Shown: piece by piece, positions 12,066-19,036 of the stretch
Numbering within the stretch: position 1 is the first letter of the stretch
Layout: each line of letters starts with the position of its first letter
Position numbers and translations under genes: made by a program
Source: Escherichia coli
GTDB lineage: Bacteria > Pseudomonadota > Gammaproteobacteria > Enterobacterales > Enterobacteriaceae
Assembly: GCF_003334315.1 (NCBI RefSeq)
Contig: NZ_QOWR01000041.1
Length of the DNA stretch: 43,657 nucleotides
Strand: one strand, 5' to 3'
The notes under the pieces: model-generated
What the model saw: the letters and a program-made list of their open reading frames with translations, nothing else
Told to the model about the DNA's origin: nothing
The model's database searches: none

Positions 12066-12147
12066 TGAGAAGAGAAAAGAAAACCGCCGATCCTGTCCAC
12101 CGCATTACTGCAAGGTAGTGGACAAGACCGGCGGTCTTAAGTTTTTT
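12066..12147 (-). terminator. Long interrupted hairpin terminator downstream of spy (potentially bidirectional)
   Basis: CCGCCG…GTGGACA / TGTCCAC…CGGCGG hairpin at about 12082-12134, flanked by T-rich tracts on both strands (ttttcttttc on minus, gtttttt on plus). Confidence 0.65.
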
Positions 12148-12157
12148 GGCTGAAAGA

Positions 12158-12643
12158 TTATTCAGCAGTTGCAGGCATTTTACCTTTTGCCGCTGGACGT
12201 TCTGTCAGACGCTTCTCAAAATTAGCATTAAATTGCTTTTTCTGTTCCGGCGTCAGGATGTTGTAAATTTTGTTCTGGGTTTCCATGTGCGCCAGCATGT
12301 TAGCTTTGCGCTGTTCTTCCATTTTTGCGATCTGCGCTTCAGCTTTTACTTTATCGAAGGTATCGCTGGCAATGATGTCATGCATTGCGCGGCGTTCTTC
12401 CAACGGCGGACGTTTCATCTGGTCACGCTGGCCTTTCATGATTTCGCGGATCTGCTGTTTCTGCGCGTCGGTCAGGTTCAGGTCTTTGAACATCATGTCC
12501 TGATGCGGACCGAACTTGCCTTTGTGGTGCATCATCGGCTTCGCGTCAGCCGGTGCTGCGGTAGTGGTGTCTGCGGCATGGGCCAGGTTAGCCGCGCCAA
12601 GAGCCAGGGTAGAGGCAACAAACAGTGCAGTTAATTTACGCAT
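12158..12643 (-). CDS. spy: Periplasmic ATP-independent chaperone Spy
   Basis: 161-aa ORF MRKLTALFVASTLALGAANLAHAADTTTAAP… with signal peptide and Spy/CpxP-like LTDAQKQQIREIM motifs. Confidence 0.93.
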   Translation of the reverse strand: MRKLTALFVASTLALGAANLAHAADTTTAAPADAKPMMHHKGKFGPHQDMMFKDLNLTDAQKQQIREIMKGQRDQMKRPPLEERRAMHDIIASDTFDKVKAEAQIAKMEEQRKANMLAHMETQNKIYNILTPEQKKQFNANFEKRLTERPAAKGKMPATAE

Positions 12644-12748
12644 ATTCTATATCCTTCCTTTCAGTTATTTATTACGGCTTTCTTAAGTAGCGTGCCGTGT
12701 TGACGAGATTAACTTTACTGACTTTAGCGTCAATTAATCAGAGCAACG

Positions 12749-12769
12749 GTAAAACAATGAAAGTGTAAA
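12749..12769. promoter_or_regulatory. GTAAA direct repeats (CpxR-box-like) in the spy upstream region
   Basis: GTAAAacaatGAAAGtGTAAA read directly; resembles the CpxR GTAAA-N5-GTAAA consensus. Functional assignment is inferred. Confidence 0.4.
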
Positions 12770-12943
12770 AAACACTTTTGCGTCAATTATGGAGAAAAAA
12801 AGAAAATTTGATGGAGAGTGATGAGAGAATATTACAACACGATGATTTCGCAGAGATTATGAAGAACTATACCGGATGACTGGTGATAAATAAAGCAAAT
12901 AACCAGGATTAATCTGTATTAATTTATAAGAAAGCAACTTAAT

Positions 12944-12967
12944 ACCCGCAGAATGATTTCTGCGGGT
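12944..12967 (-). terminator. Putative terminator hairpin downstream of astE
   Basis: ACCCGCAGAatgattTCTGCGGGT hairpin just past the astE stop on the minus strand; the following tract is T-rich but not a clean U-run. Confidence 0.5.
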
Positions 12968-12972
12968 AAGTA

Positions 12973-19036
<6,064 letters not shown>

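Follow-up and report, generated by a model that had tools for sequence, protein, structure and literature searches.

Motifs upstream of spy in an Escherichia coli contig: a known BaeR- and CpxR-dependent promoter in which a rare allele completes a 10-mer duplication

The DNA upstream of spy in an Escherichia coli contig carries GTAAA repeats and two identical copies of a 10-mer, GCGTCAATTA, and the locus raises the question of whether these motifs are the sites through which the regulators CpxR and BaeR act on spy, or have some other origin. The window, that is, the whole stretch of DNA that was analysed, is 43,657 nucleotides long (43.6 kb). According to its list of open reading frames, a spacer of 329 bp, 12644-12972, separates two genes that are both on the minus strand, exactly as described in an earlier sequence-only reading of this DNA; the spacer thus follows the ast operon and precedes spy in the direction of their transcription:

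12158..12643, minus strand: spy coding sequence, encoding the periplasmic chaperone Spy (161 amino acids), at a position identical to that of K-12 b1743
12973-13941, minus strand: astE, an open reading frame
12943..12968, minus strand: terminator hairpin of the ast operon, an inverted repeat with an 11-bp perfect stem and a 4-nt loop, beginning 4 nt past the astE stop codon

The spacer is the spy promoter and regulatory region of K-12, which is ordinary and already known and characterised: it is present in 5,424 of 5,426 complete E. coli genomes, strain HS30-1 is 100% identical to it, and between 12600 and 13000 the window differs from K-12 MG1655 at two of 401 bases, 12783 and 12849, with no indels (K-12 coordinates correspond to window coordinates plus 1,812,982). 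This promoter has already been dissected by experiment, and spy serves as a standard reporter of the Bae and Cpx envelope-stress pathways. The ast hairpin was left uncalled by a terminator scan because of its weak T-tract; its structure is kept among species and its sequence is not, as hairpins of unrelated sequence stand in the same place in other species. An Rfam scan of 12100-13100 found no family in the spacer, its sole match being a sub-threshold manA-II over the ast terminator, which was rejected (22.5 bits, the gathering score being 100); small open reading frames (21-56 amino acids) overlapping the spacer were also rejected, none of them having support.

The control of spy by CpxR and BaeR, on which the sequence-only reading relied, is well established in the literature: spy requires both regulators (PMC2731931; PMC12503329; knockout RNA-seq in PMC7657598). 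A spy::lacZ fusion depends on BaeR as well as on CpxR, and upon overproduction of the regulators spy is raised, by qRT-PCR, more than 70-fold by BaeR, 40-fold by CpxR and 3.9-fold by RcsB (PMC2731931); in K-12 exposed to 5% ethanol, knockout of baeR lowers spy by log2 5.8 and that of cpxR by log2 3.0 (PMC7657598).

Conservation was assessed by a phylogenetic footprint, for which the spy loci of 80 species representatives were collected and the 330 nt upstream of the ATG were aligned, the window plus 77 sequences giving a set of 78 enterobacterial species. Conservation extends over the entire region from about -20 to about -105, in contrast to the central part of the 5′ leader and to everything upstream of about -225, which are divergent. 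Closest to spy are two hexamers, TTGACG and TAATCT, which at 16-nt spacing would constitute a sigma-70 promoter, followed by the leader:

12728..12733, minus strand: -35 hexamer TTGACG, a 5/6 match, located inside the proximal copy of GCGTCAATTA and identical in 77 of 78 species
12706..12711, minus strand: putative -10 hexamer TAATCT, a 3/6 match, 16 nt downstream of TTGACG and exact in 40 of 78 species
12714..12718, minus strand: GTAAA between the -35 and the -10 (the promoter spacer), within GCTAAAGTCAGTAAA (12714-12728); GTAAA is conserved in 63 of 78 species
12674..12698, minus strand: stem-loop ACGGC...GCCGT at the 5′ terminus of the spy mRNA, 2-4 nt away from the putative start

No promoter was called in the spacer by a consensus scan at its threshold, because the -10 hexamer matches at just three of six positions. 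From the geometry of the hexamers, transcription would start at about 12698-12701, with a leader of about 55 nt. When orthologous leaders were folded with RNAfold, almost all formed a hairpin at this end of the mRNA (two were without the anchor and one could not be assessed), with loops that range from 3 to about 27 nt and with compensatory changes in the stem (ACGGC/GCCGT, ACGACA/TGTCGT, GCGACA/TGTCGC, CGGTG/CACCG). Two species carry structured, ERIC-like insertions of about 120 nt in the spy leader.

Upstream of the core promoter, three elements of BaeR type are found on the spy strand:

12782..12799, minus strand: BaeR box TTTTTCTCCATAATTGAC, centred at about -90 and containing TCTCCATAA at 12787-12795
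12809..12817, minus strand: second BaeR-type element TCTCCATCA, 8/9 to TCTNCANAA, centred at about -113, its CTCTCC conserved
12852..12871, minus strand: distal (third) BaeR-like box TATAGTTCTTCATAATCTCT, centred at about -161 and containing TCTTCATAA at 12857-12865, an exact TCTNCANAA

The first of these qualifies as a BaeR box by match to the consensus of Nishino 2005, TTTTTCTCCATDATTGGC, as quoted in PMC3799227 and PMC3915751: it agrees with the published BaeR box TTTTTCTCCATAATTGaC at 17 of 18 positions here, the mismatch being 12783, and at 18 of 18 in K-12. It is the only match with at most one mismatch in the window, where even at three mismatches 0.13 matches are expected. The motif of Yamamoto 2008, TCTNCANAA (quoted in PMC3799227), occurs eight times in the window against 4.9 expected, and is exact both inside this box and at 12857-12865, where TCTTCATAA lies within TAGTTCTTCATAATCTCT, a repeat copy of the core of the main BaeR box.

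Occupancy of the spy promoter by BaeR in vivo has been shown in K-12 by ChIP-exo, with two peaks in the promoter (PMC7657598). Of these, peak_1 (K-12 1825677-1825711) corresponds to 12695-12729 of the window, over the -10, the promoter spacer and the start, and peak_2 (K-12 1825823-1825843) to 12841-12861, where it adjoins and overlaps the distal BaeR-like box. In the comparison with K-12 sites that had been proposed together with the sequence-only reading, BaeR is found in the promoter, but its peaks flank the 18-nt box at 12782-12799 instead of covering it, and no CpxR peak was called at spy, in a data set of low power with only 13 CpxR peaks genome-wide. As a control, the BaeR box of mdtA, TTTTTCTCCCTTATTGGC (K-12 2153945-2153962), falls inside mdtA peak_5, and peak_6 extends over the -10 and start region of mdtA; peaks on the -10/start region are present also at many strong promoters of the same set (raiA, rplK, cspA), which suggests a polymerase-associated signal. 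The flanking arrangement at spy may reflect the exonuclease borders of a larger complex, such a polymerase-associated signal, or a real use of the distal box.

Two further conserved blocks lie upstream of the main BaeR box:

12835..12847, minus strand: block AATCATCGTGTTG, conserved as AATCAnnnnnTTG, similar to the IHF consensus with one mismatch and exact in L030 and L064
12886..12917, minus strand: far-upstream block ACAGATTAATCCTGG...TGCTTTATT, centred at about -210, a pseudo-palindrome C(A/G)GA-N4-TCCTGG

The former resembles the IHF consensus, WATCAANNNNTTR. The ast terminator hairpin separates the latter from the ast genes, which speaks for a role related to spy rather than to the ast operon; the synteny of astE and spy is nearly universal, so that gene order cannot separate the two possible owners of the block. 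The spy control region may further hold undescribed elements conserved across Enterobacteriaceae, in which case spy, which is reportedly induced about 4-fold by RcsB, would integrate three envelope-stress pathways through a multi-site region of about 220 bp. These elements would comprise a direct RcsB site at about -210 (or a site for another regulator, or an upstream promoter with TATAGT), the third BaeR-like box at about -161, which has a BaeR ChIP-exo peak beside it, and, over the -35, a degenerate BaeR-like box. We regard this as unlikely. The RcsB box is TN(G/A)GAN4TC(T/C)NA (PMC7913699). At 12903-12917, AGA-TTAA-TCC agrees with its core, RGA-N4-TCY, but both outer positions deviate, with A for T and G for A in this sequence as well as in the usual variants of the orthologs, and six of the eight specified positions of the strict box are matched. 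An upstream promoter TTTATT-N17-TATAGT, with a conserved TATAGT at 12866-12871, is only a possibility, and the arrangement TTGCTT-N21-TATAGT was rejected, its spacer being too long for sigma-70. An MqsA-type palindrome was considered at AATCCTGGTTA, and was dropped since its TTA part is not conserved. The blocks at about -141, -161 and -210 should be kept in mind when spy biosensors are designed or the promoter is truncated.

The duplicated 10-mer has one copy in the core promoter and one at the BaeR box:

12727..12736, plus strand: proximal copy of GCGTCAATTA, which reads TAATTGACGC on the spy strand; exact in 19 of 78 species, with TAATTGACGA in 31
12780..12789, plus strand: distal copy of GCGTCAATTA, with a rare allele, T, at 12783 (C in K-12); exact in 2 of 78 species

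Both copies noticed in the sequence-only reading were found, the second one beginning at 12780 and not at 12781. They are the only two in the window, where about 0.18 are expected by chance, and at least two copies arose in 3 of 100 shuffles. The 10-mer belongs to a longer repeat, ACTTTwGCGTCAATTA, conserved between the copies at 15 of 16 positions with a spacing of 53 bp. When the spacer was shuffled 1,000 times with dinucleotides preserved, a 15/16 repeat appeared in 0.2% of the shuffles, and a 14/16 repeat, which is the state of K-12, in 3.1%; exact repeats only 9-10 nt long were seen in 9-30%. In K-12 the distal copy is GCGCCAATTA, a 9/10 resemblance that the C-to-T change at 12783 turns into 10/10. 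When a 70-nt probe around 12783 was searched for exactly in complete E. coli genomes, the form of the window was found in 41 of 5,400 and that of K-12 in 4,952 of 5,401; therefore, the perfect duplication is a rare allele and not a feature of the species. Across species only CAATTA is conserved in the distal copy, and the base that the window has at 12783 is present in about 30-39% of them; since this position varies between species, the variant is probably neutral. The distal copy overlaps eight bases of the Nishino 2005 box, at its promoter-proximal end. On the most likely reading the duplication is incidental, consisting of a -35 hexamer with a flank that resembles the tail of the BaeR box, sharpened by a rare variant, and the repeated 10-mer is not a regulator motif in its own right: one copy is the -35 TTGACG, the other the BaeR-box tail, and their exact identity comes from the variant.

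The duplication would instead be functional if the 53-bp repeat represented two BaeR-type boxes, a strong one at about -90 and a degenerate one, GCTCTGATTAATTGACGC, overlapping the -35, from which BaeR would contact polymerase as at mdtA, where the BaeR box abuts the core promoter. The two copies do share more than the 10-mer: their 20-mers agree at 15 of 20 positions and, loosely, 33 nt are 73% identical; the similarity of the 16-mers is above chance even in K-12 (p about 0.03), and a skeleton TCT..TAATTG..G occurs in both copies in 71 species, with a mean of 16 matches out of 31. Moreover, TCTGA directly upstream of the -35 (12738-12742) is highly conserved and has no other assigned role, and BaeR peak_1 touches the proximal copy. 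However, this copy has CTGAT in place of CTNCA, the element conserved across BaeR sites (PMC3799227), and agrees with TCTNCANAA at only seven of nine positions, and TTGACG is fully accounted for as the -35; peaks over the -10/start region occur equally at raiA, rplK and cspA, and although 53 bp correspond to about five helical turns, no model of BaeR oligomerisation needs such a spacing. A second, functional BaeR box over the -35 appears improbable, and we retain the view of the repeat as a by-product.

The GTAAA repeats lie between the BaeR box and the -35 hexamer:

12749..12769, plus strand (opposite to spy): CpxR-type pentamer cluster GTAAAacaatGAAAGtGTAAA, GTAAA-acaat-GAAAG-t-GTAAA
12749-12753, plus strand: first GTAAA
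12759-12763, plus strand: GAAAG
12765-12769, plus strand: second GTAAA

The cluster is exactly where the sequence-only reading had placed it, and the attribution of GTAAA repeats to CpxR agrees with the published consensus, GTAAA-N5-GTAAA, in which two tandem pentamers are separated by a 5-nt gap (PMC7889517); the phasing, on the contrary, is not that of the two perfect pentamers, which are 16 bp apart from start to start against the canonical 10. The canonical register is found in the pair GTAAA-N5-GAAAG, GTAAAacaatGAAAG, at 12749-12763, which matches the consensus at 13 of 15 positions, is centred at about -56 from the inferred start and is inverted relative to spy. In the footprint, the pentamer proximal to spy (TTTAC on the spy strand) is present in 78 of 78 species, CTTTC/GAAAG in 76 and the distal TTTAC in 55 (TTTAT in 15), and the whole 21-mer is identical in 47; among these pentamers the distal GTAAA varies most, and the best-conserved pair is the canonically phased one. 

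Matches to the consensus are frequent, with 54 for GTAAA-N5-GTAAA at up to two mismatches in the window against 37 expected, and the match of the cluster, taken alone, is therefore weak evidence. A similar picture was given by a matrix built from the six CpxR sites in Table S2 of PMC6361445, by which the cluster (GTAAAACAATGAAAG) ranks first in the spacer but 35th in the window, with about 0.26 matches expected by chance in the spacer. The cluster is thus a candidate CpxR site on the strength of its conservation, its sequence match alone not being significant; since the flanks of the pentamers are also conserved, conservation supports a function without delimiting the site. Its location fits that of a CpxR box, about 56 nt upstream of the inferred start of a CpxR-dependent promoter.

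CpxR might act instead at GCTAAAGTCAGTAAA in the promoter spacer, at an element of the 5′ leader like that proposed in Salmonella, or indirectly. In favour of sites other than the cluster, GCTAAAGTCAGTAAA is a 2-mismatch match to the CpxR consensus on the spy strand, with the second-best matrix score in the 329-bp spacer and with the conserved GTAAA noted above, the ChIP-exo data include no CpxR peak at spy, and in a Salmonella study the motif finder chose a different spy site, GTAAAAATAACTGAA, in the 5′ leader, 16 nt from the ATG (PMC6361445). This last choice indicates that the assignment of CpxR sites from sequence alone is unstable, and, together with the background-level statistics, it makes GTAAA matches alone unreliable for this purpose. 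Nevertheless, a site between the -35 and the -10 is expected to repress, and CpxR activates spy; GTAATAAATAACTGA, the E. coli counterpart of the Salmonella motif, matches poorly and did not come up in the consensus search; and the cluster at -56 is the top-scoring and most conserved of the candidates, at the usual activator position for this family of regulators. Action of CpxR away from 12749-12769 is therefore very unlikely.

The view that the motifs arose by chance in an AT-rich spacer and play no regulatory role, as might be argued from the abundance of GTAAA-type matches in the window and of 9-10 nt exact repeats in shuffled spacers, is effectively refuted by the conservation data, the motifs being near-invariant in 78 species of many genera in which the adjacent leader and the DNA past about -225 vary freely, and is at odds with the BaeR-box match being unique in the window and with the published dependence of spy on both regulators.

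The region is thus very probably an ordinary spy promoter, with a sigma-70 core, CpxR at the pentamer cluster, BaeR at its box and the duplication as a by-product; this reading draws on the sequence matches, conservation and allele frequencies observed here and, for regulation, consensus motifs and BaeR occupancy, on the literature, and our confidence is lower for the exact bases contacted and for the start, which we infer. In such a promoter, polymerase with sigma-70 would recognise the -35 TTGACG, at 12733-12728, and the -10 TAATCT, at 12711-12706, and initiate near 12700. Phosphorylated CpxR would most likely bind the cluster at 12749-12769, the conserved phased pair GTAAA-N5-GAAAG lying at about -56, where a regulator of this family is able to act as an activator. 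Phosphorylated BaeR would bind the box TTTTTCTCCATAATTG(G/A)C at 12799-12782, at about -90, and probably also the related TCTNCANAA elements at about -113 and -161; the two regulators would activate spy independently, as published.

The elements proposed have close relatives at other promoters of the same regulators. The BaeR box of mdtABCD-baeSR, TTTTTCTCCCTTATTGGC, belongs to the same 18-nt consensus family, TTTTTCTCC.T.ATTGGC; the mdtA box is immediately next to the core promoter and within a ChIP-exo peak, whereas that of spy is at about -90 and is flanked by peaks, and spy, unlike mdtA, has a CpxR-type cluster between the BaeR box and the -35. The CpxR box of the cpxP/cpxRA intergenic region, GTAAAACAACGTAAA, begins with the same nine bases, GTAAAACAA, and has its second pentamer 10 bp downstream (PMC7041290; PMC6361445, Table S2); in spy this second pentamer is GAAAG instead of GTAAA, and a third one, a perfect GTAAA, is out of phase at +16. 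A CpxR ChIP-exo peak is present at cpxP and absent at spy.

The closest comparison is with the spy promoter of E. coli K-12 (b1743), which occupies the same locus, with the gene order cho-ves-spy-astE, and shares 399 of 401 bases across 12600-13000; the -35, the GTAAA cluster and the BaeR box are common to both. One of the two single-base differences is at 12849. The other, at 12783, changes TTGGC of the K-12 BaeR box into TTGAC and results in the exact duplication of GCGTCAATTA; the rare variant of this strain falls within the BaeR box, on a base that differs among species.

The following elements were found upstream of spy, in the spacer separating it from astE:
12943-12968, minus strand: hairpin downstream of astE (11-bp perfect stem, 4-nt loop), beginning 4 nt past the astE stop codon
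12886-12917, minus strand: conserved block ACAGATTAATCCTGG...TGCTTTATT, far upstream, some 210 nt ahead of the inferred spy start
12852-12871, minus strand: third BaeR-like box TAGTTCTTCATAATCTCT, which includes an exact TCTNCANAA
12835-12847, minus strand: conserved block AATCATCGTGTTG, resembling the IHF consensus with one mismatch
12714-12728, minus (spy) strand: CpxR-like element GCTAAAGTCAGTAAA, with 2 mismatches, between the -35 and the -10
12674-12698, minus strand: 5'-terminal stem-loop (ACGGC...GCCGT) of the spy leader, from folding of orthologous leaders

The third BaeR-like box is conserved between species and adjoins the second of the two K-12 BaeR ChIP-exo peaks at spy (window 12841-12861; PMC7657598); unlike this box, which lies beside that peak, the canonical BaeR box (12782-12799) is positioned between both peaks. 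The TATAGT at 12866-12871 is conserved and could also serve as the -10 of an upstream promoter. The canonical box itself carries a single-base difference at position 12783, T in the window versus C in K-12, which turns TTGGC into TTGAC on the spy strand; the T allele is rare (among some 5,400 complete genomes of E. coli, 41 carry it), and, since this position varies among species, the substitution is likely to be neutral. AATCATCGTGTTG sits between the main BaeR-type box and the distal one; it is one mismatch from the IHF consensus WATCAANNNNTTR, which is matched exactly in the Kosakonia and Franconibacter orthologs.

Within the core promoter, the GTAAA of GCTAAAGTCAGTAAA is conserved in 63 of the 78 species, and occupancy of this site by a regulator should lead to repression, not activation. 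Further downstream, the stem-loop of the leader is present in nearly all the folded orthologous leaders; its loop varies widely in length and sequence and its stem has compensatory changes, a pattern that suggests an mRNA-stabilising 5' hairpin. The leaders of Cedecea colo and Buttiauxella izardii (loci L079 and L081) carry insertions of about 120 nt, located about 120 nt upstream of the ATG; these are highly structured (about -56 kcal/mol) and resemble enterobacterial ERIC/IRU repeats.

The hairpin following astE is probably the terminator of the ast operon; hairpins of unrelated sequence occupy the equivalent position in other species, and the terminator scan gave no call for it because its T-tract is weak. 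On the other side of spy, the interval towards ves contains a GC-rich hairpin with a T-run behind it (12124-12138, plus strand). This is the probable terminator of ves, and it may be bidirectional and serve spy as well.

Most of the 78 enterobacterial species keep the block at 12886-12917, and its distance from the ATG is constant (259-286 nt). RcsB reportedly induces spy 3.9-fold (PMC2731931); in the literature consulted, no site appears to have been assigned. The pseudo-palindrome C(A/G)GA-N4-TCCTGG within the block, while not matching the outer T and A of the RcsB box, matches its core, RGA-N4-TCY.
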